Assembly: GCA_904420445.1 (NCBI GenBank)
Contig: CAJFVJ010000003.1
Location: 255,090 to 319,089, forward strand
DNA: 64,000 nt
Origin: Candidatus Adamsella avium
GTDB taxonomy: Bacteria > Cyanobacteriota > Vampirovibrionia > Gastranaerophilales > CAJFVJ01
Direction of reading: 5' to 3'
A program made the position numbers and the translations under genes. The notes beneath the pieces are model-generated. The model was not told where the DNA came from, searched no databases, and saw only the letters and a list, made by a program, of their open reading frames with translations. Each line of letters opens with the position of its first letter. The first letter of the stretch is position 1. Shown here in pieces: positions 1,380 to 52,634 of the stretch.

Positions 1380-2807
1380 TCAGGCATTTACCCGTCCGTA
1401 CATATCCTCAAAACGAATAATATCTTCTTCCGAGATGATATCACCTTTTTGAACTTCGAGAATTTTCAGAGGTTTCTCAAAAGGATTTTGAAGGGAATGT
1501 TTTTCTTTCACAGCGATATCTATGCTATCACCAGCTTCGAGAATAAATTCTTCTTCGCCTTTAATCACCTTTGCCCGCCCTTCAAGCACGACCCAGTGCT
1601 CTGAACGGTGATTGTGCAGCTGCAAGCTGAGTTTTGCATCAGTATTAACCTGAATAACTTTTGTCAAAAATCCTTCACCTTCATTCAGAACAGTGTAATA
1701 TCCCCATGGGCGATAAACCGTTTTGTGATAAGAGCAAAGAGGGTCATCATTATCCTTCAGCTGAGAATAAATCTTTTTGACTTCCTGTGTTTTTGATTTA
1801 TCACATGCAAGGATAGCGTCTTCTGTTTCAACAATAACAACGTTTTCAAGTCCTATTGCCGATATCAGTTTTGAAGTTGAATAAAACATTGAATTCTTGC
1901 AATCAAGTTCTATTACATTTCCAGAAATATAGTTTTTGTTCGCATCTTTCTCAGACATATCATAAATACTTTCCCAAGATCCTACATCATTCCACCCGCA
2001 ATCCATAGGGAGGAGCACAATATTTTTCGAATATTCCATTACTGCATAATCTATTGAAATATTCGGCATCTTCGCATAATCATCAAATTTGACGGAAGGT
2101 GATTCAGGTTTTATAGTAAGCTTTTCAAGGACATCAACAACATCAGGAGAATATTTCTTCAGCTCATTCAGGATAGTTGACGCTTTGAACATAAATATCC
2201 CTGCGTTCCAGAAATAATTTCCGGATTCAAAATACTCTTTTGCAAGAGCATAGTCTGGTTTTTCCTTGAAGGTATCAACACGATAAGACTCTGAAACCTT
2301 TTCGTTCAAAACTTTTATATAGCCATATCCGGTATCAGGAGAAGTCGGTTTGACACCGAAGGTAACAATAAATCCCTTCTCAGCCAGTTCTGCCCCATCT
2401 GAGAGCATTTTTCTGAACTTAGCACTATCTGAGATAAAATGATCAGAAGGACAAACCAGTATAACAGGATCTTCAGAAGAATCAAAAAACTTTTGAATAA
2501 ACTTTGCTCCGAGAGCTATCGCAGGAGCAGTATTGCAGCCTACAGGCTCTACAATGAAAGAGGTATCGGATGTATTTGCCACCTGAGAGATTTGAGCTCT
2601 GACATTTGCCAGGTGTTTTATATTTGTGATGCTCAAGATATGTTCATCGGGGATAAGCCCCTTGAGGCGTTCTACAGACATTTGCAGAAGTGTTTTCTCA
2701 GAGTTATTCAGTTTCAACAGCTGTTTTGGATAAAGCTCTCTGCTCAAAGGCCAAAGTCTTGAGCCGCTCCCGCCTGCTAAGATAAGTGCGAACATATTTT
2801 TTTGCAT
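1380..2807 (-). CDS. manC: Mannose-1-phosphate guanylyltransferase / mannose-6-phosphate isomerase (bifunctional, type II PMI)
   Basis: 475 aa. It has the N-terminal nucleotidyltransferase loop LILAGGSGSRLWPLS and a C-terminal cupin block (LHNHRSEHWVVLEG). An RBS GAGGGG precedes the ATG. Confidence 0.9.
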   Translation of the reverse strand: MQKNMFALILAGGSGSRLWPLSRELYPKQLLKLNNSEKTLLQMSVERLKGLIPDEHILSITNIKHLANVRAQISQVANTSDTSFIVEPVGCNTAPAIALGAKFIQKFFDSSEDPVILVCPSDHFISDSAKFRKMLSDGAELAEKGFIVTFGVKPTSPDTGYGYIKVLNEKVSESYRVDTFKEKPDYALAKEYFESGNYFWNAGIFMFKASTILNELKKYSPDVVDVLEKLTIKPESPSVKFDDYAKMPNISIDYAVMEYSKNIVLLPMDCGWNDVGSWESIYDMSEKDANKNYISGNVIELDCKNSMFYSTSKLISAIGLENVVIVETEDAILACDKSKTQEVKKIYSQLKDNDDPLCSYHKTVYRPWGYYTVLNEGEGFLTKVIQVNTDAKLSLQLHNHRSEHWVVLEGRAKVIKGEEEFILEAGDSIDIAVKEKHSLQNPFEKPLKILEVQKGDIISEEDIIRFEDMYGRVNA

Positions 2808-2892
2808 TATTCCCCTCTTTTATAAACTCTTTGCTATATCAAAATTTTAGCATAGTTATAAAAAATTTGAGAATAATATAAATTGAAGTTAT

Positions 2893-3054
2893 TTAAAAAT
2901 TAACAAATAAAATAATTGACCCGCCGAGATAAGCGAATGCCGATAAAATTAGCCACCATTGCATTAAAGGATGCTGATTTTTCCATGCTGTCATAATAGT
3001 CACATTCTCCGTAGCTGTATAGTTATCAAGAACCGTATTTACATGTTTTTTCAT
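2893..3054 (-). CDS. Small hypothetical membrane protein (53 aa, below the ORF-track cutoff)
   Basis: Hand translation: MKKHVNTVLDNYTATENVTIMTAWKNQHPLMQWWLILSAFAYLGGSIILFVNF. An RBS AGGGGA lies 6 nt upstream. It has one C-terminal hydrophobic helix. Confidence 0.35.
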   Translation of the reverse strand: MKKHVNTVLDNYTATENVTIMTAWKNQHPLMQWWLILSAFAYLGGSIILFVNF

Positions 3055-3140
3055 AATATTCCCCTAATAAAAATCCTCTTCCTGTTTCTATTTTAGCCAT
3101 TGTGCATTTTATTTCATCATCCAGGTGGTTTAGTCCACAC

Positions 3141-3179
3141 AAAAAGACCTGTCTGAGTGTGTTTCAGGCAGGTCTTTTA
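3141..3179 (-). terminator. Rho-independent terminator after the phosphohexomutase gene
   Basis: Stem agacctgtctga / tcaggcaggtct with one mismatch, followed on the minus strand by a T-run. Confidence 0.7.
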
Positions 3180-3200
3180 TGATAAATATATTAAAATTTC

Positions 3201-5492
3201 TTAATATTTCAATGTTTGAGAGTAGTCTGGAACAACGAAGTTTTCTTCAGGCATTCCTTCATCTGACCATTTTTGATAAGTGTCCAAAGACGCTTCTTTT
3301 ACGTTGTTGTAGTAATCATCTCTGATATATTTGTTGTAGACATCGTTTCTTGAACCTGAATAGTTCGCAAGTGCATTTGCATAACGAACAATTTCATCTC
3401 TGTCATGACCGCCTCCGTAGGCTTTTGTTTTTGCATCAGTGCCTGATGGTCTGATTTCGATGAATTTATCACTGAATTTCAAATACGTGCCGTCTCCGAC
3501 AAATTTGATATCTTCAAGATTTAAGAAATCAAGCTGAGGGAAAGTGAAGTTGAGAATATTTCTGACAGCATTCATGCTCATCAGGTTTTCTCTTTTTGCC
3601 ATAGCAAGAGATAAATAGAACAAGTCATTATCGATTCTTCTTTGCTCTCCTTCTCTTTTTGCCGCTTTCAGCTTGTCTATATCCGGCTCGCTTTCGTTGT
3701 AATAAGAGATATCCTCTCTTACGTCGAATCTTGCGATAATATTATTTTTTGAGAACAACTCGCTGAGGTAATCAGCAAGGTTTAAATCATATTTCTGTAT
3801 ATGACCTACAAGAGCTGATGCAACAACAATTGCTTCAGTTGCACTCTTTTCTCTCATTGCTATAGCGATACGTCCGCTGATTGAGCGGATGAGTTCTTCA
3901 GCTCCGATAATCATACCGCCTGATTCTTCTCCGCCGAATATCATACGTGGATTAACTCCGAGGTTAATTTCTTCGCCGAAGACATCTCTAATGATAACCT
4001 CTTTTTCAGGATTTTCTGAAATTTGTTTTTCGACTTTCTTCATTATTCCGGCGATTTCTTTGAATCCGACAGGAACGTTGACAACTTTGATGCCTTCTTT
4101 TGCAGCCCATTCATCCCATGCCATAGAAGATGCTGTTGTTTTGATTATAAACCTCGGATGATTATCAAAAAGACCTTTTGCTTTGAGTTGTTTTGTCCAG
4201 AAGTCCATAATCATCAGGAATGCCTGATTTGCAGAATAAACGGCAAGCAGTCTTGTTCCGTTCAAAGGAATATATTGAATACCGAGTTTTGAAAGTTCAT
4301 TCGCTCTTTCTTTTGATTCAACCTGAACAATAGTCAATCTGTCATGGTCAGGATCAGTAATCAGAACAACCGTTCCGATAGGTTTATCTTTCAGTTTCTT
4401 TTCATAGTTCATTGTTTCGATAACAGGCATAAATACAGACCCGTCTCTGTGTTGTTTTACAACAGTAGCATCAGCAGAGTAGTCATAGAAAGTTTCTCTG
4501 CCGTCAGGATCTTTTGAATATTTTCCTATACCGTGGAAGAATGGTGATTCTTCTTTATTAAACCACTGAAATTCGTTGCTGATACCGAGTTTCATCAACA
4601 CTTTGCTGAGAGTCTTATAAGCAGACCCTCCGACATTCTCTATGATAACCCTGTTTTGTATGCTTTTGATTGATTCGAGGTTTTCTGCGTTTGCAACGCC
4701 GTTTTTCAAATAATCGACATAGAGGTCAACCCCGTTGTTCAACTGCTCCATCAGGTGTTCATCAATATATGAGCTGTCTTCTGCAGCAAGTTTAATTTCA
4801 TAAGAGCCTGTTTCTTCGACTATTGAAAAAATTTCTTTGATTTTTTCGATGAATGCCATTGACTCCTCGGGCAAATACTGGCTGCCTTGATTATTCAAGT
4901 CTTTTGTAGCATTTTTAACACTTATGCCATGGCTTGAGGTAATATATTCACCGCCAAGCAAATCAAGTTTGAATACAAGGAATGAAGCCATCCAGATAGG
5001 AATAGTATCTCTGTGCGACGGAACATGTGTTGTTATTCCCAAAGCTGCCTGAACTCTGCTTATCAAATCAAGATAGAGCTGAGAGTTGTATCTTACTTCG
5101 CAAGCTGCCAGTTTATGGAGTTCTTTATTCGGATATTTTTCTTTTGCAACAAGAGCTTTTGCAAGTGTAGCAATAATAATCCCTATTGCATTAATCGGGA
5201 ATCTTGTATCAGTAGGATAGAGAATATTCTGAGGTCCTCTGATTCCTGCAGTTGACACTCTTGCCTCTTTTTCATATTCGGCAAACCAATCAAGAAGCCC
5301 CAATCCTTCAGGGTTTTGGAACTCATCATAAGGATAGAGATATTCTTTTCTCAAAATAAAACTTATTTCATTCTTATCATCAAAATTAATAAGTTTTCTA
5401 TTCTTAATATAATCAGGTGTTTTTTGTTCGTACATATCGAACAGCATTTTTTCCAATAATTCTGTTGATTCAGTCATATAAGTTAAACTCAT
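3201..5492 (-). CDS. Alpha-D-phosphohexomutase superfamily protein (phosphomannomutase/phosphoglucomutase-like, unusually long)
   Basis: 763 aa. All four family loops can be read: TSSHG (Ser loop), DPDHDR (metal loop), GGEESGG (sugar loop) and RPSGTDAK (phosphate loop). It lies next to manC. Confidence 0.7.
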   Translation of the reverse strand: MSLTYMTESTELLEKMLFDMYEQKTPDYIKNRKLINFDDKNEISFILRKEYLYPYDEFQNPEGLGLLDWFAEYEKEARVSTAGIRGPQNILYPTDTRFPINAIGIIIATLAKALVAKEKYPNKELHKLAACEVRYNSQLYLDLISRVQAALGITTHVPSHRDTIPIWMASFLVFKLDLLGGEYITSSHGISVKNATKDLNNQGSQYLPEESMAFIEKIKEIFSIVEETGSYEIKLAAEDSSYIDEHLMEQLNNGVDLYVDYLKNGVANAENLESIKSIQNRVIIENVGGSAYKTLSKVLMKLGISNEFQWFNKEESPFFHGIGKYSKDPDGRETFYDYSADATVVKQHRDGSVFMPVIETMNYEKKLKDKPIGTVVLITDPDHDRLTIVQVESKERANELSKLGIQYIPLNGTRLLAVYSANQAFLMIMDFWTKQLKAKGLFDNHPRFIIKTTASSMAWDEWAAKEGIKVVNVPVGFKEIAGIMKKVEKQISENPEKEVIIRDVFGEEINLGVNPRMIFGGEESGGMIIGAEELIRSISGRIAIAMREKSATEAIVVASALVGHIQKYDLNLADYLSELFSKNNIIARFDVREDISYYNESEPDIDKLKAAKREGEQRRIDNDLFYLSLAMAKRENLMSMNAVRNILNFTFPQLDFLNLEDIKFVGDGTYLKFSDKFIEIRPSGTDAKTKAYGGGHDRDEIVRYANALANYSGSRNDVYNKYIRDDYYNNVKEASLDTYQKWSDEGMPEENFVVPDYSQTLKY

Positions 5493-16344: not shown

Positions 16345-16549
16345 AAATTTTTTCAAACGTTATATCTTTAAAAGATTTCAAAAATAAAAAACAAAAAGCT
16401 GATTAATAATATATAAACAATTATATATTATTACAAAATATTTACATTTCATTTTTGCCATAAATGCAGTAAAATAAAGCATAATGCAAATTTATTATGT
16501 ATATATTTAAAAGATTTAAATATATACTGGCAATTATTTTAAATATATC

Positions 16550-16697
16550 GTTTTTATATATACATAAAGAAAATAAAAAATCCTCCCCAAAAATTTAACC
16601 AAATAAAAAAGTTCTTAATATAGATATAATTATTAAGAAATATTACAGCAATTTTATAATGCCAAACACCTTATTCATAAAGGTTTTGGCATTTTTG
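16550..16697 (+). other. Promoter-plus-leader relic of the hairpin-protein gene cassette / candidate small RNA
   Basis: The exact 15-mer gtttttatatataca (16550-16564) recurs at 16753 and 17503. Leader-like sequence follows (ataaaaaat...tttaaccaaat), with the SD position degraded. A terminator at 16659-16697 (atgccaaacacctt / aaggttttggcat plus T-run) resembles the one after 16835..17230. Confidence 0.35.
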
Positions 16698-16834
16698 CAT
16701 TATAAATGATATATAACAGAGATATAAAATTAGCACTTTTCTAAAAGAAAAAGTTTTTATATATACAAGAGGAGTAAATTTAAATCTCACTTATCACATT
16801 TACCACATTTTAATTAGGGAAAAGGAGTTACACT

Positions 16835-17230
16835 ATGGGATACGCAATGTTTAGTTCCAGGGAAATTATGCTCGTAAGCCAGATTAATGACTTGCAGTAT
16901 AGATTGACCGAATTGACGATGAAACAACAGGATTTATCACAAATGAGCAGTGCTTACACTACACAAGCTCAAACTTACTACAACTTTACTACAGGACAGA
17001 TGGATCAGGATGCACTTGATGAAGCAATCAACAACGCATCTCCGGGAACAAATGTAAATTCTCTACAGGATCCAAACGCTACACTGCAGCAAATAAGCAA
17101 TGCTGAAAAACAAATCGAGATGGAATCAAAACGACTCCAAACTCAACTTCAAGCTAAGCAAACCGAATTAGAAGCTATTTCTCAAGGCAAAGAACAGGGC
17201 ATCAAAAACGCTACACCTAAGTACGCTTAG
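16835..17230 (+). CDS. Hypothetical helical-hairpin protein, paralog 1 (conserved MGYAMF N-terminus and EQGIKNATPKYA C-terminus)
   Basis: 131 aa with a strong SD AAAGGAG 7 nt upstream. It is about 80% identical to 17596..17991, with many synonymous differences, and has its own terminator. Confidence 0.85.
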   Translation: MGYAMFSSREIMLVSQINDLQYRLTELTMKQQDLSQMSSAYTTQAQTYYNFTTGQMDQDALDEAINNASPGTNVNSLQDPNATLQQISNAEKQIEMESKRLQTQLQAKQTELEAISQGKEQGIKNATPKYA

Positions 17231-17417
17231 TAAGAAATAACGTATAATATTTCAGGTTTATAACCGAACGTACACAACACTTATGGTTAATACCGGTTGG
17301 TTAGCAACGACCAATTCAGAGAGTTGCAAACCGGCTGCAGGTATCTGAATCACTGTTATTTCAATGTGCTCAGATGTTTAACTTCCGTACTTGATTGAAA
17401 TGTTAAGAAATGTGACA

Positions 17418-17459
17418 ATCGCCAAATATCTTGTTACACAAGAAGTTTGGCGATTTTTT
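17418..17459 (+). terminator. Rho-independent terminator of paralog 1
   Basis: Stem atcgccaaatatcttgt / acaagaagtttggcgat, followed by TTTTTT. Confidence 0.8.
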
Positions 17460-17595
17460 CGTTTTTATGGCAAACATTTTTAGCAACTTTAAAAAGTATA
17501 TTGTTTTTATATATACAAGAGATAAAAAATATCAAACCACATTTCTAAGTCACACATTTTTAACCACAAATTAATTAGAGAAAAGGAGTTACATT

Positions 17596-17991
17596 ATGGG
17601 CTACGCAATGTTTTGTTCAAGAAAGATCATGCTCGTCAACCAGATCAATGATCTTCAGTATCGTTTAACAGAATTAACGATGAAACAACAGGATTTATCA
17701 CAACTGAGCAGTGCTTACACTACACAAGCTCAATCTTATTACAACTTCACAACCGGTCAGATGGATCAAGCAGCATTAGATAAGGCTATCGCAGATTCTT
17801 CACCAAATTCTGGAGTAAACTCATTCCAGGATCCTGAAGCAAACCTCAAGAAAATAAGCAACGCAGAAAAACAAATTGAGATGGAATCAAAACGTCTTCA
17901 AACACAATTGCAAGCAAAACAAACCGAATTAGAAGCCGTTGAAAAAGGTGAAGAACAGGGCATCAAAAACGCTACACCTAAATACGCTTAA
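17596..17991 (+). CDS. Hypothetical helical-hairpin protein, paralog 2
   Basis: 131 aa. The SD and the upstream 15-mer are identical to those of paralog 1. Confidence 0.85.
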   Translation: MGYAMFCSRKIMLVNQINDLQYRLTELTMKQQDLSQLSSAYTTQAQSYYNFTTGQMDQAALDKAIADSSPNSGVNSFQDPEANLKKISNAEKQIEMESKRLQTQLQAKQTELEAVEKGEEQGIKNATPKYA

Positions 17992-29036: not shown

Positions 29037-29157
29037 GGGATGAGTTTGTATCAAATTTTTAATATACAAAAAAAATCTAGCAACTTTCCTTATTTTTGTA
29101 TTTAGTAATATTAAAAATAAAAATATGTGTGTGAATACTGGACAAGGAATGCTTAAT

Positions 29158-29469
29158 ATGTCAAATTTATCAATCAGGATGCCCCAACATATTGATAAAC
29201 CCATCAACGTCATGAGCGAAAAAGCCTTAAGAGAAATGGCTTATGAAAAAGGGGCCAAAGCTCTCGAAAGCCTTGGATTACCCGGCGACCTTCTATCTCC
29301 AAACAATTTACAAAAAGCAGAATCATCATCAAAACCTATTTTAAAAAAACTTCTTACCAAAAATAATCTCTTCAACATTGGAAGAATTTCTTTTCTCGGA
29401 GCTACTGCAGCAATCCTTGCAAAATACATATATAATACTTGCCAACAATCAAATAACACGCTATCCTAA
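29158..29469 (+). CDS. Hypothetical tail-anchored membrane protein, paralog A
   Basis: The track ORF is 29125..29469. The start is moved to ATG 29158 (AAGGAA, then 8 nt), so the product begins MSNLSIRMP...INVMSEKA. This aligns with the start of 29569..29868. It has a C-terminal hydrophobic segment. Confidence 0.6.
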   Translation: MSNLSIRMPQHIDKPINVMSEKALREMAYEKGAKALESLGLPGDLLSPNNLQKAESSSKPILKKLLTKNNLFNIGRISFLGATAAILAKYIYNTCQQSNNTLS

Positions 29470-29568
29470 ATATTAAAAAATATTAATCTCTGAAAAAAAT
29501 ATAACAATTTTTTTTATGTTCGTTTTTTAAATATACATCAAATGAAAGAAATATAAGTGGAGGTAAAA

Positions 29569-29868
29569 ATGTCTGATTTAAAAATCAATTTTCCGGTTAA
29601 AGTTCCTCAAGGCTTAAATGTTATGAGCAATGAAGCAAGAACAAAGACCATCCGTGATATAGAATCAAAAGTACTTGATGATATGGGATTGCCAAAGGAT
29701 ACGTTTAGCCAAACAAAAGCTTCAAAATCTAAAGTTTCTCAATTTTTAGAAAACGTGAAAGGAAATAAAATTCTTACAAAAAGAAATGCATTGATTGCTG
29801 CAGGGGTTGCTATCGTTGGTATAGCAGCAGGTGCAATAGCAAAACATATTCACAACAAAAAAGCATAA
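29569..29868 (+). CDS. Hypothetical tail-anchored membrane protein, paralog B
   Basis: The start is ATG 29569 after GGAGG; the track's GTG at 29557 is rejected. The product reads MSDLKINFP...LNVMSNEA...MGLPKD, and ends in the TM anchor ALIAAGVAIVGIAAGAIAKHIHNKKA. Confidence 0.65.
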   Translation: MSDLKINFPVKVPQGLNVMSNEARTKTIRDIESKVLDDMGLPKDTFSQTKASKSKVSQFLENVKGNKILTKRNALIAAGVAIVGIAAGAIAKHIHNKKA

Positions 29869-29925: not shown

Positions 29926-30070
29926 TTACAAAATATTAAACTCATAAATCCCCTATTCATAAGCCTTTTATAAATTTTATATACTTTTTAGGCAATCATT
30001 TTAATCAAATTGTTTTTATACAAATATAGGGTTATAGAGTTACTATTATTATTTTTATAGGGGACAAGTT

Positions 30071-31444
30071 ATGACATCAGTAAATGGTTATTCAAATTAT
30101 TCACAAACAGGCATGTATATTCCTTCTTACATGCAAACACCCGGGACAACAACCACAACAACAAACACAACAACTACAACGACTTCTGAGAAAAAAGACG
30201 GAGTAGGAATGGGAACAGTCCTTCTTGCAGGTGCCGCAATTCTTGGAGGTATAATTACCTTTAAAAACGGAGGTCTGAAGAATACCTTCAAACAAATCGG
30301 GAAATTATTCGGCAAAAACGCAGATGACGCAGCCAAAAATCTGAACCTGCTCGAAAAAGGCAAAGCTCTTCTGAAAGGGACAAATCCAAACAAAGGCACT
30401 GACGCAGTAGGAGAAGCTCTTTCTGCAGCAGCAGGGAAAACTGAAAAAGCAAAATGGTCTGAAACCCTGGGCGATATGTACAAAAGTATAAAAAATAAAT
30501 TTACAACAAAATCTAATACTGATGATATAGCTCAAGAAGCAGCAAAAAGAACAGCAAATGAACAGGCAGCAAAAGAATTTGCTGAACAAAGCCAAAAAGA
30601 ATATTTCGGCAGAGTTGACCAAACAACAGGAAAATCCGCCCAAGAAAGTGCAGCTGTTTTCGAAGCAGCAGAAAGAAAAGCCAATAAACAGGCAGCAAAA
30701 GCAGCTGCTGAACAAAGTCAGAAAGAATATTTCGGCATAGTAGACCAAACAACGGGAAAATCCGCTCAAGAAAGCGCAGCAGTATTTGAAGCAGCAGAAA
30801 GAACAGCTAATGAACAGGCAGCAAAAGAATTTGCTGAACAAAGTCAGAAAAAATATTTCGGCATAGTAGACCAAACAACGGGAAAATCCGCTCAAGAAAG
30901 CGCCGATGTATTTAAGGCTAACGATGCAAAAGTTTCTCTACAACACAATAAAGCAGATGCAAAAGAAGCAATCGCAAAATATGGAAAAGATTCTGTGGAA
31001 GGTAAAGAAGCTGCCAGAGACCTTGCTAGAATTGAAGAACTTGAAAATGCACAAAAATCAGCTGATAAAATAGCACAAGAAGCGGCAGAAAGAACAGCCA
31101 ATGAACAAGCAGCAAAAGCAGCAGCAGAACAAAGTCAGAAAGAATATTTCGGCAGAGTAGACCAAACAACAGGAAAATCAGCTAAAGAAAGTGCAGCAGT
31201 ATTTGAAGAAGCTGCCGAAAAAGCAAAAGTGTCTCTCCAACAAAGGAAAACAGAAGCAGAAGCAACAATCGCCCAATATGGCAAAGACTCTATAGAAGGT
31301 AAAGAAGCTGCCAGAGACTTAGTAAAAATAGAAAACGAACTTAAAAACTATACAACAACATCACAACCAACAAATATACAAGAAATACTTGATGAAATTG
31401 CACAGGAAGAACAAATTGCAGACTTAAGACAAGCAGGCAGATAA
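30071..31444 (+). CDS. Repeat-rich membrane-anchored protein (poly-Thr tract, Gly/Ala TM helix, 42-aa repeats)
   Basis: 457 aa. The N-terminus contains TTTTTTNTTTTTT and then the TM segment GMGTVLLAGAAILGGII. There are four copies of R(T/K)AN(E/K)QAAK..AEQSQKEYFG.VDQTTGKSAQESAAVFE and two copies of a second repeat of about 40 aa (KVSLQ...YGKDS.EGKEAARDL). Confidence 0.75.
   Translation: MTSVNGYSNYSQTGMYIPSYMQTPGTTTTTTNTTTTTTSEKKDGVGMGTVLLAGAAILGGIITFKNGGLKNTFKQIGKLFGKNADDAAKNLNLLEKGKALLKGTNPNKGTDAVGEALSAAAGKTEKAKWSETLGDMYKSIKNKFTTKSNTDDIAQEAAKRTANEQAAKEFAEQSQKEYFGRVDQTTGKSAQESAAVFEAAERKANKQAAKAAAEQSQKEYFGIVDQTTGKSAQESAAVFEAAERTANEQAAKEFAEQSQKKYFGIVDQTTGKSAQESADVFKANDAKVSLQHNKADAKEAIAKYGKDSVEGKEAARDLARIEELENAQKSADKIAQEAAERTANEQAAKAAAEQSQKEYFGRVDQTTGKSAKESAAVFEEAAEKAKVSLQQRKTEAEATIAQYGKDSIEGKEAARDLVKIENELKNYTTTSQPTNIQEILDEIAQEEQIADLRQAGR
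30548..30925 (+). repeat. Three tandem 126-bp coding repeats (a fourth dispersed copy at about 31090-31215)
   Basis: The period is 126 nt, read from recurring ...aacaggcagcaaaag...gaatatttcggc... at about 30548, 30674 and 30800. Copies 2 and 3 are nearly identical at the DNA level. Confidence 0.85.
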
Positions 31445-35791: not shown

Positions 35792-35814
35792 AAAAAAGAC
35801 CCGATTCAGGGTCT
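35792..35814 (-). terminator. Terminator of hairpin-protein paralog 3
   Basis: The minus strand reads agaccctgaatcgggtcttttttat. Confidence 0.65.
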
Positions 35815-35889: not shown

Positions 35890-36336
35890 TTATGCATACC
35901 TTGGAACTGATTGTTTAATTCCTTGTTCTTCACCTTGTTCAACAGCTTGCAGTTCCTGTTGTAATGCTGCCAATTTTGTTTCAAGTTGTTCTCTTTTCAT
36001 CTCAATTTGTTTTTCTGAATTGCTTATTTGAGCCTGAATATTCGTCAAATAAGTTTCATCAAAAACCATAGACCCCATACCATCCGTTGACATCTGAACA
36101 AATGAATACCCTGATGTCTGAGATGCAGAATCTGCTTCCATCAAAATTTGGTTTACACCGTATTTTGTCTTCTGTCCTGAATTTGCGAACTCTTGTTGAG
36201 TTACTGTACCATCACCAATTACACCGCCGAGAGAAGTCAAATCCATTTGATTCTGATAAAGTTGAGTGATTTGAAACTGCAAGTCAGAAATCTGACTGAT
36301 AATCATCAACTTTCTAGTCGTTAACATTGCATACAT
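35890..36336 (-). CDS. Hypothetical helical-hairpin protein, paralog 3 (divergent)
   Basis: 148 aa with an RBS GGAGG. It shares the N-terminal block YAMLTTRKLMIISQISDLQFQITQL and the C-terminal block SNSEKQIEM...AVEQGEEQGIKQSVPRYA with 16835 and 17596. Confidence 0.8.
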   Translation of the reverse strand: MYAMLTTRKLMIISQISDLQFQITQLYQNQMDLTSLGGVIGDGTVTQQEFANSGQKTKYGVNQILMEADSASQTSGYSFVQMSTDGMGSMVFDETYLTNIQAQISNSEKQIEMKREQLETKLAALQQELQAVEQGEEQGIKQSVPRYA

Positions 36337-36580
36337 AACCTATAACCTCCAACATATCCTTTTGAATTTTCATCTACCCTATATATTTATAAAAACAAAA
36401 ACTGTAGAGAAATTGCGTCTCCTTTTCAAAAATAGCAGAAGTACAAAATCCCTGTATAACAAGACTTTTGAGCATTTATCATTTTTTAATATTTAAAAAA
36501 TAAAGAAAAAATATAGATATAAAAAAGAAAAAATATATATATTATATATTCTAATTTTTATAAAATATTACGAAATATTA

Positions 36581-36612
36581 CAAAAGAGGACAAAGATAAA
36601 TCTTTGTCCTCC
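36581..36612 (-). terminator. Terminator of the SLH protein gene
   Basis: The minus strand reads ggaggacaaagatttatctttgtcctcttttg. Confidence 0.8.
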
Positions 36613-36633: not shown

Positions 36634-38805
36634 TTATTTGCCCTGGCAGCCGAAAGAAATGGTAACTTTTTCATTCGGGTTGATGCTGGCAATCTTCATA
36701 CCTTTCGGATTGACGAGGTATGCAACTTCATCGCTTGTAATATTAAATATACCGGCTGCACCGCTGACAGCTGTTCTTGTTACGTCTATAGGAGCCATAA
36801 CCAGAGCAGTAGCAGCTTCACCGACACTTCTTGCAGAAGCGCCGAATTTACCTTGAAGAATTTCGCCGCCTGCAATACCTGTTGAGCCGACAACCTGCTC
36901 AGCAGCATTACCTGTTGCAATCAATGCACCGCCGAGAGTTCTTCCGACAGTACCCAATACCTGACCTGTAAATGAGAACGGAGCCTCAAACAGTCTTGCA
37001 ACAATATTAGGTGTTTTCTGCTGTTGAACTTCTGCACTCAATATTTGTCTTGGCAGCTCTGTTTTGCATTTTCCGTTTTGTATATCCAAGAGAGCAATTT
37101 TCATAGCACCCTGGCATTTGCCGCTTGGTCTGATTACTTCAACAACTCTGCCGTGTACTTTTGAATTGCAAGGATAATTTACACCGTTAATAGTAACCGG
37201 TTCAAGTGTTTTAGCAACAAATCTGTCGCCTACACGGTTGTTTTTGGCACTCAGCTGGTCATCAACCTTTATACATATTGTCGGAACAGTAACAACCTGC
37301 TCTTTCTGAACCATAGCCGCCTGACCTGTCGGTTCGCAGTCACATGCTGTTGTTTCAGCGGGGTCAATACCGAGAGCAATTCTTGACTGAGCAATCATTG
37401 CAGCCACATCGGCTCTTGATGCGTTTTTCTGAGGAGCAATCATATCAGGATGAGGACTGTCTTCGAGAACACCTTGTTTAAGAGCCTTGGCTACACCGAC
37501 TTTAGCCCAATCCTGTACATCGCATCCGTCTTTGTAACCTTTGAGGATTTCATCAGCGTCACATTCACTCATAGGACAATTGAATGCTTTTGAGATGGTA
37601 GTCATTGCTTCTGCTCTTGAAACGGGTTTTCTCGGGAAGAATTTGTTGTTAGGATATCCTGCCATATAACCGTTTTCAACAGATTTTATGATAGAGTCAT
37701 TTGCCCAGTTATAAGCGGGAACATCAGAAAACATACTTCTTTCACAGGATGTATCAGCCTGAAGATTGAACCCGTGCGCAATCAAACTTGCAAATTCAGC
37801 TCTTGATACGGGGACATTAGGTTTGAATGTTCTGTCAGGATAACCTGCAATAACACTCTTTGCCGTCAGCTTGTTAATATCGCAGCTTGCCCAGAAATTA
37901 TCGGGGACATCCGGAAAAACATCCATCATCGGAGCGGCAGCCCCTGTTACATTTGATGGAACAGTAATAGGTTCATAATATTTTTTCAGAACTTCTTTGC
38001 TCGATTGAGTTTTGATTGTCATAGGGCACTGAGCACCGGCAAAATTCATGGGATTGCGAGAAACACCTACACCGTTAATATCACTTCCCGCTGCGCAAGG
38101 GTCATTATAACAAGGAAGCGAGGCAGCAGCGCCTGTTATAGGCATAATTGTATCGCATCCGCAAGGAGCAGCAGCCCCTGTCATCGGAACACCGAAATCA
38201 CATCCGCAGTTCCCGGCAGAGATAACAGGCATTTGGGATAAATTACAACCGTTCCTTGAAACTTGAATGCCGTCATTTCCGCTTAATCTCATCCAGTTTG
38301 GAGTTGCAGCGGATAATGAAGTAGATCCTGCGCTAAAAATTGAAGCAGGATATGCATAAGCCTGGATGCCCTTTTCCAATTCTCCGCAAGCGCTGTTTGG
38401 ACAAACTCCGCAGGTAGGTTTTGATTTTTCGGGACATGGGTCTAAGATAGGACAAGCAGGTCCTGTTTCACAAGGGTCACAAGGATCACATGGGTCACAA
38501 TCACATGGTGCCGCAGGACAAGGGTCACATGGGTCATCACATGGATCACAATCGCATGGAGCAGCAGGACAAACAGGAACCGCAGGACAAGGATTTGCAG
38601 TTTGAAGCGGACATGCACCGCCTGTTACAACAGGCAACTCCGATTTTTTTGCAACTTCTCGAAAACCGCTTTCGAAAACTTGAGATGAACTCGGAGCGGA
38701 GAACATGCTTAAATCAGCTTCTGCTGCACCTCCGACCTGAGTTCCGGCAGTAATTAATCCCATAGAAACAATCACTGCCGCTAAAGTTAACTTTCTAAAT
38801 TTCAT
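36634..38805 (-). CDS. SLH-domain cell-envelope protein with an N-terminal Cys/Asp/Pro repeat block and a C-terminal Gly-zipper region
   Basis: 723 aa with a signal peptide (...QVGGAAEA). It has three SLH repeats (FPDVPDNFWA..., FSDVPAYNWAN..., DVQDWAKVGV...) and a PCDCDPCDDPCDPC... block. The P-x-TGAA motif occurs four times. Confidence 0.85.
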   Translation of the reverse strand: MKFRKLTLAAVIVSMGLITAGTQVGGAAEADLSMFSAPSSSQVFESGFREVAKKSELPVVTGGACPLQTANPCPAVPVCPAAPCDCDPCDDPCDPCPAAPCDCDPCDPCDPCETGPACPILDPCPEKSKPTCGVCPNSACGELEKGIQAYAYPASIFSAGSTSLSAATPNWMRLSGNDGIQVSRNGCNLSQMPVISAGNCGCDFGVPMTGAAAPCGCDTIMPITGAAASLPCYNDPCAAGSDINGVGVSRNPMNFAGAQCPMTIKTQSSKEVLKKYYEPITVPSNVTGAAAPMMDVFPDVPDNFWASCDINKLTAKSVIAGYPDRTFKPNVPVSRAEFASLIAHGFNLQADTSCERSMFSDVPAYNWANDSIIKSVENGYMAGYPNNKFFPRKPVSRAEAMTTISKAFNCPMSECDADEILKGYKDGCDVQDWAKVGVAKALKQGVLEDSPHPDMIAPQKNASRADVAAMIAQSRIALGIDPAETTACDCEPTGQAAMVQKEQVVTVPTICIKVDDQLSAKNNRVGDRFVAKTLEPVTINGVNYPCNSKVHGRVVEVIRPSGKCQGAMKIALLDIQNGKCKTELPRQILSAEVQQQKTPNIVARLFEAPFSFTGQVLGTVGRTLGGALIATGNAAEQVVGSTGIAGGEILQGKFGASARSVGEAATALVMAPIDVTRTAVSGAAGIFNITSDEVAYLVNPKGMKIASINPNEKVTISFGCQGK

Positions 38806-52140: not shown

Positions 52141-52290
52141 ATATAATCCCTTTCATAAAATAAATTCTTATATTCTATATCTATAAAGAAAATTTTTTGA
52201 CATCCCATATAGATTTTTTGACTTAAAGACTTTTGGTTTCACTCAAAGTGATTAATAATATAAGGCTAAGAAGCTTTTTATATAAAAAAA

Positions 52291-52634
52291 GAGAAAGCAG
52301 CCGGTAAGCCGGGTTCTGTTTTAAACGGTCATCTATCTCGAACAGCCGTTGCCGGCTGCCTCAAGCGGTTTTTCGAAAAACGGCGGGTCACCTTAGCTTT
52401 TCTGTCAACCTTGCACTAAACCGGGGTTTACCTGGCCGATACCTCTCGATATCGCCGGTGGTCTCTTACACCACCGTTGCACCCTTACCTGTAAGCAAAC
52501 GCTCCATCGGCGGTCATCATTTCTGTGGCACTATCCTCACAGTCACCTGCACCGGACGTTATCCGGCGGTCTGCCCTCTAGTGCCCGGACTTTCCTCAGG
52601 CATCTCTGCCCGCGACCGTTCAGCTGCTTTCTCT
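52291..52634 (-). ncRNA. rnpB: RNase P RNA, bacterial type A
   Basis: The minus strand contains GAGGAAAGUCCGGGC, GGUAAGGGUGCAACGGUGGUGUAAGAGACCACC and ACAGAACCCGGCUUA. P1 is formed by GAGAAAGCAGC (5') and GCUGCUUUCUC (3'). It is a GC-rich island in AT-rich DNA. Confidence 0.92.

Follow-up and report, generated by a model that had tools for sequence, protein, structure and literature searches.

The 64-kb window analyzed here (the whole stretch of 64,000 nucleotides from Candidatus Adamsella avium contig CAJFVJ010000003.1) carries three related genes for small proteins, p1, p2, and p3, the third of which lies behind a gene for an SLH protein and is our main subject. The p3 gene is an intact, divergent, and functional member of a family of hairpin-type proteins and not a pseudogene, and covariation within that family shows the fold class to be an antiparallel two-helix coiled-coil hairpin, or an antiparallel dimer. 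The p3 gene, its immediate signals, and its two paralogs are the following.

35890..36336, minus strand: p3 coding sequence (third paralog), 148 amino acids, ATG start, from the list of open reading frames (ORFs) and its translation
36346..36350, minus strand: GGAGG Shine-Dalgarno sequence, 9 nt before the p3 ATG at 36336, read directly from the sequence
36386..36416, minus strand: p3 upstream element GCAATTT-N13-GTTTTTATAAA
35797..35814, minus strand: terminator-like hairpin followed by a T-run, of the intrinsic-terminator type, downstream of p3
16835..17230, plus strand: paralog p1, 131 amino acids, found by tblastn
17596..17991, plus strand: paralog p2, 131 amino acids, a tandem duplicate of p1 (83% identical), found by tblastn

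These signals suggest that p3 is a monocistronic unit, as it appears to have a promoter, a ribosome-binding site, and a terminator of its own. An earlier reading of the DNA letters (here called the original prediction) had claimed the promoter and terminator, and sequence signals for both are present at 36386..36416 and 35797..35814. That reading was also right that p3 has 148 residues, that its translation contains both of the terminal blocks it quoted, and that two 131-residue paralogs are shorter by 17 residues. Exactly two p3 paralogs were found by tblastn within the window, at 34 to 39% identity (E values of 1e-22 to 1e-24), and the likeness is confined to the first ~35 and last ~45 residues; the p3 center does not align with that of p1 and p2 and is the part that is 17 residues longer. 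The p3 protein can be laid out as a predicted N-terminal helix (~2 to 41), a subfamily-specific center (~42 to 93, ~37% Gly/Ser/Thr as counted by hand), and a C-terminal helix (~94 to 143), followed by a conserved S/T-P-K/R-Y-A tail.

The family to which these proteins belong is sizeable. A HMMER search of 1.84 billion cluster representatives (50% identity clusters) with an 11-sequence profile returned at least 348 clusters with an E value of 1e-3 or below, 109 of them at E ≤ 1e-10. Members nearly always have 100 to 230 residues, with a profile match that spans residue 1 to the C terminus, and the center ranges from ~40 to ~280 residues (the member P0109 has 364 residues in all). The p3 protein matches the family hidden Markov model (HMM) with an E value of 9.6e-37 and displays each of the features by which we define the family: an (M)(G)YAxFxxRK N-terminal helix, a C-terminal helix ending in I-x-x-[ST]-P-[KR]-[YF], a full-length profile match, and GCAATTT-N13-GTTTTTATATA upstream of the gene. 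Its closest relative beyond its own lineage, P0028, is just 34% identical. Within that lineage, orthologs at 99, 93, 86, and 68% identity all have 148 residues and dN/dS is well below 1, which is why we do not regard p3 as a pseudogene, a condition under which the original prediction would have failed.

Conservation in the family is concentrated at the two ends of the chain, as originally predicted. In an alignment of 123 sequences (120 full-length representatives and the three window paralogs), p3 positions 1 to 33 mostly carry 2 to 4 bits per site and positions 104 to 148 likewise carry 2 to 4 bits, whereas positions 44 to 103 mostly carry <1 bit and contain many gaps. The N-terminal consensus reads M-G-Y-A-L-F-x-A-R-K-L-x-L, followed by I-N at p3 positions 16 and 17 and by L at 33, and the C-terminal consensus reads, in order, E-x-x-I-E, K-x-L-E-T-Q-L, E-L-E-x-V-E-K-A-E-x-x-A-I, and T-P-K-Y. 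Near-invariant residues are R8/K9, I140, P145, and K/R146-Y147.

Two lines of evidence bear on what these ends do. AlphaFold2, supplied with the family alignment, models p3 with helices at 2 to 41 and 94 to 143 (predicted local distance difference test score [pLDDT] 69, predicted template-modeling score 0.55) and p1 with helices at 2 to 53 and 80 to 126 (pLDDT 71), the center being of low confidence in both. Independently of AlphaFold, we computed mutual information with average product correction from 162 family sequences that were <80% identical, in an alignment to the family HMM. Among long-range couplings, the strongest were K9-E136, L26-I111, Y2-I140, A3-I140, I16-L125, L26-R115, G37-I104, L19-L125, and D42-Q101. 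Of the 30 highest-ranking long-range pairs, 22 fall on an antiparallel diagonal (i + j = 138 to 151), on which 14% of the candidate pairs lie overall (binomial P = 3e-13), and the ladder of couplings spans from 2/140 to ~51/97. The covariation thus shows the two termini to be antiparallel partners of each other, and the AlphaFold models agree with this. Because the N- and C-terminal segments covary in this way, the conservation of the termini is explained in the first place as that of a hairpin stem, and covariation in this sense reveals the structural role of the conserved ends. The N-terminal ~40 residues, (M)G-Y-A-x-F-x-x-R-K and then heptads, would zip onto the C-terminal ~45, which are heptads ending in E-x-x-I-x-x-S/T-P-K-Y. 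If the segments zip antiparallel, both chain ends would therefore meet at one end of a rod, where the salt-bridge-like pair K9-E136 and the Y2/A3-I140 contacts are located; the variable center is at the opposite end.

The center is variable in the family as a whole, yet it does not behave as a hypervariable loop in the p3 lineage. We compared p3 codon by codon with three orthologs, taking residues 34 to 103 as the core, with nonsynonymous (dN) and synonymous (dS) divergence Jukes-Cantor corrected and pN given as a p-distance.

L001 (99% protein identity): dN 0.003, dS 0.28, pN termini 0.000, pN core 0.006
L009 (86% protein identity): dN 0.070, dS 1.12, pN termini 0.075, pN core 0.058
L021 (68% protein identity): dN 0.231, dS 1.28, pN termini 0.200, pN core 0.198

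Among these orthologs the p3 core is constrained as strongly as the termini. The dN/dS values of ~0.01 to 0.18 reflect purifying selection, and there are no indels between p3 and any of the three. Being constrained like the termini and free of indels, the core is a paralog-specific module rather than a hypervariable loop, one that diverged following an ancient duplication and was maintained from then on. In every orthologous line, purifying selection acts on the center, so that each paralog has a specialized tip module of its own. The original prediction had called the p3 center completely different, longer, and Gly/Ser/Thr-rich. All of this stands, except that the center is not unique to p3, since the element I-G-D-G-T-V-T-Q-Q-E-F (I.DG.VT..EF), absent from p1 and p2, is present in ~34 of 165 family representatives.

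This central motif, I-x-D-G-x-V-T-x-x-E-F at p3 residues 40 to 50 (~36187-36219, minus strand), is similar to the latter half of an EF-hand loop. The canonical EF-hand loop has 12 residues, D-x-[DN]-x-[DNS]-G-x-[IV]-x-x-x-E. We rejected an EF-hand identity for the motif: p3 keeps loop positions 5, 6, 8, and 12 only, positions 1 and 3 are not acidic, and no EF-hand Pfam match was found in p1 to p3 or in the family members scanned. Neither was a signal peptide, lipobox, or transmembrane segment visible in the ~170 family members inspected (by eye, with no predictor), which leaves surface display of the center unsupported.

The genes of the family also share a regulatory signature. The p3 element is bipartite, and a pattern scan of the window located further copies as follows.

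16733..16763, plus strand: p1 element, GCACTTT-N13-GTTTTTATATA
17483..17513, plus strand: p2 element, GCAACTT-N13-GTTTTTATATA
29992..30022, plus strand: same element, before the gene for a 457-residue repeat protein
16530-16560, plus strand: extra copy of the element, with no ORF following

Allowing one mismatch, the pattern has 8 matches in the window against 0.36 expected, and a 3-mismatch pattern has 7 against 0.42; the good matches belong to p1, p2, p3, and the repeat-protein gene (30071), plus the extra copy at 16530. The original prediction had noted that p3 and the repeat-protein gene have an upstream motif in common, and this is borne out: the 23-nt motif TTGTTTTTATAAATATATAGGGT at 36376..36398 (minus strand) recurs with 2 mismatches at 30010..30032 (plus strand), giving 2 matches where 0.01 would be expected. 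The 23-nt motif is the 3' half of the bipartite element together with ATATAGGGT, which lies downstream of the fixed element. As the register of ATATAGGGT varies between subfamilies (10 versus 11 nt), it is more likely a start-site or leader sequence.

The bipartite element itself keeps a strict geometry. Upstream alignment of family genes from distant metagenome-assembled genomes (MAGs) gave GCAA(T/C)TT, exactly 13 nt, and (G/T)TTTTTATA(T/A/C)A in all of them, and the distance between the G of GCAA and the start of GTTTTT is 20 nt in every aligned family case. The same register was found at loci L003 to L006, L008, L021, and L022, and element sites also occur at L007, L015, L017, and L019. Housekeeping genes look different. 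The rpmH gene of L015 has a TTGATT/TATAAT pair and several housekeeping genes of the window have TATAAT-like or extended −10 hexamers by eye, with the fusA promoter of L019 less clear (also by eye). Because housekeeping genes show sigma70-like or extended −10 hexamers instead, we treat the element as a separate promoter class: its conservation points to GCAATTT-N13-GTTTTTATATA being a putative lineage-specific promoter class that departs from the sigma70 consensus. Other assignments were considered and rejected. A match to the canonical sigma70 promoter, TTGAAA-17-TACAGT at 36429..36401, overlaps the p3 element, and the N13 spacer in which it would have to be read is not conserved across family promoters. 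Readings as sigmaB-like (GTTT..GGGTA), cyanobacterial SigF-like (TAGGC..GGTAA), sigma-54, extracytoplasmic-function, sporulation-sigma, and T7-like promoters have the wrong spacing or lack key bases of the consensus.

The element extends well beyond the hairpin genes. A strict 18-base pattern matched at least 120 loci on metagenome contigs, almost all with 30 to 40% GC. Among the matches listed (L023 to L142), to which the counts in this paragraph refer, a hairpin-family gene follows ~6 of the 122 sites. The rest mostly lie ahead of other orphan ORFs without relationship to one another, several of which have a bitopic or tail-anchored membrane topology by eye. An ORF of at least 80 residues starts ≤200 nt downstream at 63 of the 89 sites with both flanks (median distance 44 nt, quartiles 28 to 67), and such an ORF lies in the opposite direction at 41 of the 89. 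Ten orphan ORFs behind the element were scanned with Pfam and none passed a cutoff, except for marginal or subthreshold EF-hand matches in two unrelated orphans downstream of the element at L025 and L035 (best E value 5.9e-6, 26.0 bits against a cutoff of 25.9). Overall, the element looks like the signature of an undescribed regulon, probably one of an alternative sigma factor or an activator, in Melainabacteria, and the promoter class offers a handle for finding that regulon and the factor controlling it.

The surroundings of p1 and p2 hold two possible RNA features. Behind the extra copy of the element, a stretch of ~135 nt within 16530-16702 (plus strand), just upstream of p1, combines a single-stranded, anti-Shine-Dalgarno-like UCCUCCCC, a stem-loop, and a terminator hairpin with a U-run (minimum free energy −22.1 kcal/mol, z = −3.2). 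It is a candidate small RNA (16566..16702) with no Rfam match. On the 3' side of p1, a relatively GC-rich stretch of ~230 nt (17231-17465, plus strand) is closed by a terminator-like hairpin at ~17419-17462 and followed by the p2 promoter. This stretch could be a long structured 3' untranslated region or an unrecognized RNA, and it has no match at the Rfam gathering threshold.

Upstream of p3 lies the SLH gene, which forms a separate transcription unit.

36634..38805, minus strand: SLH gene, 723-residue protein, upstream of p3; Pfam SLH match at E = 1.5e-23, and matches to Sap SLH structures
36585..36612, minus strand: terminator-like hairpin with a 12-bp stem, which ends the SLH transcript before the p3 promoter

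The SLH protein starts with a segment that looks like a signal peptide (judged by eye, without a predictor), and p3 is 297 nt downstream on the same strand, an arrangement that the original prediction described correctly. Synteny of the two genes in relatives, a check that it proposed, holds in part. The order SLH gene, p3, and flavodiiron gene is kept in the same species and appears to be kept at the 86% ortholog (L009), where a partial, unannotated ORF takes the SLH position. For the 68% ortholog (L021), on a contig of just 1.2 kb, the comparison was limited to the promoter and the flavodiiron gene downstream, both of which are present. Other subfamilies, in contrast, are found elsewhere, in unrelated housekeeping contexts.

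p1/p2 of the window, and the single-copy ortholog in L008: flanked by pdxJ and lgt
L015: family member flanked by rnpA and pgi
L017: family member flanked by a radical-SAM gene and arsB
L019: family member flanked by a pilT-like ATPase gene and a ferredoxin gene
L022: family member upstream of a MatE gene

No SLH gene was found next to other subfamilies in the loci examined. Because a terminator separates the two genes and other subfamilies occur in unrelated contexts, the adjacency of p3 and the SLH gene is incidental and not functional. In the distant MAG of L019 (positions 1619-3359), the family gene stands directly downstream of the gene for a PilT-like T2SSE ATPase, a single instance. The SLH protein itself has a Cys/Asp/Pro-rich low-complexity N-terminal region (CDCDPCDDPCDPC..., 38440-38620, minus strand). 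A 51-bp tandem repeat (38470-38572) codes for this region, and the SLH domains have a central rather than an N-terminal position.

Some further features of the window lie apart from the hairpin genes. The 457-residue repeat protein (30071..31444, plus strand) has a Thr-run N terminus, one transmembrane-like segment at ~47 to 65 (by eye), and 3 to 3.4 tandem copies of a 126-bp (42-residue) repeat that are 83 to 89% identical; it has no passing Pfam, NCBIfam, or PHROG match. Directly upstream, 29125-29469 and 29557-29868 (plus strand) encode paralogous-looking proteins of 114 and 103 residues with C-terminal transmembrane-like anchors (by eye), and degenerate versions of the promoter element precede both genes. 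A full-length bacterial class A RNase P RNA (52289-52631, minus strand, 267.9 bits) is the sole Rfam match in the window, and there are no tRNA genes in the 64 kb.

Taken as a whole, the structural and evolutionary description given above is probably correct. The role that we propose on top of it is more speculative. The end of the rod where both termini meet, invariant and composite, would form a common working surface, either as the docking site for a conserved partner or as the place where the hairpins associate with one another, end-on or in bundles, and the tip module would set what each paralog recruits. The hairpins would be cytoplasmic and would act as adaptors or scaffolds in a promoter-defined program of lineage-specific, largely membrane-anchored orphan proteins, under the control of an alternative sigma factor or an activator. 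We consider the adaptor or scaffold function possible but doubtful. A broader version, in which the hairpins are the most conserved members of a Melainabacteria program (dozens of orphans, many of them membrane anchored, with an undescribed GCAATTT-N13-GTTTTTATATA promoter class and a dedicated sigma factor or activator) and serve as modular adaptors in, or as subunits of, a new assembly, cytoskeletal or envelope-associated, with a common terminal docking end and a paralog-specific tip, strikes us as unlikely.

Several points weigh against this account. The composite docking end is deduced from conservation, and the terminal residues could serve folding alone. The covariation would fit an intramolecular hairpin and an antiparallel homodimer alike, and the AlphaFold confidence is moderate, with the p3 center poorly modeled (pLDDT <50 at 57 to 61 and 74 to 85). 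The absence of signal peptides and transmembrane segments comes from inspection by eye. The putative promoter assignment draws on conservation, intergenic position, and orientation only, and about one-third of the metagenome motif matches listed fall inside long ORFs and may be due to chance.

Four other explanations can be set against it. The original prediction took the conserved termini as intermolecular assembly surfaces of an envelope oligomer involving the adjacent SLH protein, with the Gly/Ser/Thr-rich core as a displayed loop. Such a model fits the far greater conservation of termini than core across the family, the possibility that three paralogs form hetero-oligomers, and the position of the SLH gene 297 nt upstream on the same strand, in an order kept at the 86% ortholog. 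Against these stand the covariation, which is strongest between the termini themselves and antiparallel, and the constraint on the core, which equals that on the termini in the p3 lineage and has admitted no indels; neither the assembly surfaces nor the display loop is supported. The lack of a visible signal peptide, lipobox, or transmembrane segment in the ~170 members inspected points the same way. The functional link to the SLH protein is likewise unsupported, with a strong terminator between the two transcription units, an adjacency limited to close relatives, and other subfamilies that never adjoin SLH genes in the loci examined. We regard this model as improbable. A subunit of an extracellular or periplasmic filament, comparable to flagellin D0, type III secretion system (T3SS) needles, or EspA and exported by the flagellar type III apparatus, would account for heptad-helix termini around a variable center of ~40 to ~280 residues, for a flagellin-like composition rich in Ala/Asn/Gln/Ser/Thr and poor in Cys/Trp/His (by eye), and for the presence in one genome of several paralogs that appear to be monocistronic units, all with a promoter and terminator of their own. 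The top weak Foldseek matches include IpaD, FliT-FliD, and flagellin cores, and Gastranaerophilales have partial or complete flagellar gene sets (PMC5877343). Every structural match is nonsignificant, however (E ≥ 0.13), and no flagellin or axial-protein Pfam match was obtained in 71 members: Flagellin_N (PF00669), Flagellin_C (PF00700), and Flg_bb_rod are absent from p1 to p3 at E ≤ 1 and from the 25 commonest families of the 71 members at E ≤ 0.01. With 127 to 150 residues, most members have half the length of the smallest flagellins, the N terminus is strictly conserved, unlike a degenerate disordered export signal, the promoter is unlike the sigma-28 consensus TAAA-N15-GCCGATAA, and the neighborhoods examined contain no flagellar genes. 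On balance, a filament role is very improbable.

A role in membrane stress or remodeling, as for PspA/Vipp1/ESCRT-III proteins or hydrophilins under a stress-type alternative sigma promoter, is suggested by the MGYALF..RK start, which superficially recalls the MGLFDR and MGIFSR of Vipp1 and PspA, by the presence of Vipp1 among the weak Foldseek matches, and by a promoter class that is distinct from housekeeping promoters and takes in genes for membrane proteins, tail-anchored or bitopic, as well as for a hydrophilic protein rich in repeats. Yet hhalign gave a probability of just 0.2% for the family profile against E. coli PspA, no PspA_IM30 (PF04012) Pfam match was found in p1 to p3 or in the 71 members, and the N-terminal hydrophobic positions covary with the C-terminal helix and so would be buried in the hairpin rather than free for membrane insertion. 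This explanation has a slim chance of being right. The remaining candidate is a cytoplasmic hairpin of the FliJ, InvI(SpaM), V1-D, or prefoldin type that would belong to a larger machine as its stalk or chaperone subunit. In favor of this are the size of our proteins, 130 to 150 residues, and their antiparallel hairpin, whose two termini lie at the same end; the weak Foldseek matches include prefoldin and V1 stalk subunits, subthreshold matches to PF02090 SPAM (4 of 71) and Prefoldin_2 (3 of 71) were found with a best E value of ~1e-4 (SPAM, 1.2e-4), and the FliJ model TIGR02473 matched p1 at E = 0.13. The matches are far below the curated cutoffs, though, and fall in differing members (FliJ 12.7 bits against a cutoff of 50), with no profile match above threshold for FliJ (PF02050), SpaM (PF02090), or prefoldin (PF01920 and PF02996). 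An hhalign comparison with Salmonella FliJ gave a probability of 0.65%, prefoldin conserves its central beta-hairpins while the center of this family is the variable part (<1 bit), and the genes are scattered, multicopy, and outside fliHIJ or ATPase operons. The chance that the family belongs to these machines is very slight indeed.

Returning to the family of coiled-coil hairpins as we describe it, every membership test run against known systems failed, and the only name that its members carry is "hypothetical protein." In Pfam, 0 of 71 diverse members reach threshold, and scans of the paralogs and these 71 members with Pfam, NCBIfam, PHROGs, and PADLOC returned subthreshold coiled-coil noise (SPAM, Spc24, Prefoldin_2, and JetC/SMC-like). 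A profile search of PDB sequences found nothing significant, the best match being an LXG domain (E = 0.043), followed by M protein, keratin, and designed coils, and Foldseek against the PDB gave no structural match better than E = 0.13. We also rejected a WXG100/LXG substrate of type VII secretion, for which the LXG match reaches just E = 0.043, no turn motif is conserved, and no type VII secretion genes occur in the loci examined; a Braun-lipoprotein-like or SLH-associated tether, given the MGYA.F..RK start with no h-region or lipobox by eye and no SLH match in p1 to p3; and a phage origin, as tblastn against 50,697 phage records was without a match. The literature on Gastranaerophilales with coiled-coil, flagella, or pili yielded no description of the hairpin family.

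A degenerate-pattern scan, taking one genome per species, recovered the p3 locus at 99% identity in the Candidatus Gastranaerophilales MAG CALUSR010000004.1 and more distant family copies in gut MAGs from rabbit, roe deer, sheep, and mouse. The identical p3 protein is present on many contigs, some of them >1 Mb. So far, the family is known only from Gastranaerophilales/Melainabacteria MAGs, the source of the window among them, and from unclassified low-GC gut or environmental contigs. Melainabacteria are an uncultured, nonphotosynthetic sister group of Cyanobacteria that is common in animal guts, and to our knowledge, almost nothing is known of their cell biology and gene regulation. The present analysis defines for them a sizeable family with a testable architecture that is missing from Pfam, NCBIfam, and PHROGs. 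At present it explains no known phenotype; given cultures or heterologous systems, it is a candidate for structural and localization studies.

With respect to known systems, we would best class these proteins as a new family within a common fold type, that of small coiled-coil hairpin proteins. The family resembles flagellin D0 and the T3SS needle and filament proteins (FliC, PrgI, EspA, and the IpaD central hairpin) in its antiparallel conserved terminal heptad helices, variable middle, and several paralogs, each with a promoter and terminator of its own that look strong, but it has no significant homology to them, is much shorter, has a strict N terminus, and lacks a flagellar or secretion context and a sigma-28-like promoter; in orthologs, moreover, purifying selection acts on its core to the same degree as on its termini. 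With PspA/Vipp1/ESCRT-III it shares a helical-hairpin core and an MG-aromatic N terminus, whereas it is half their length and has neither helices alpha4-alpha5 nor a PF04012 match. FliJ, InvI(SpaM), V1-ATPase D, and prefoldin beta are likewise antiparallel coiled-coil hairpins of 110 to 150 residues with both termini at one end, and they differ in conservation pattern and gene context, the Pfam matches being subthreshold and inconsistent. The PopZ and DivIVA polar hubs show no homology to the family, the PopZ termini do not pair as a hairpin, and the family is limited to Melainabacteria-type genomes. The likeness to these hubs is one of architecture: small cytoplasmic proteins in which short conserved terminal helices, responsible for interaction or oligomerization, enclose a lineage-variable middle.

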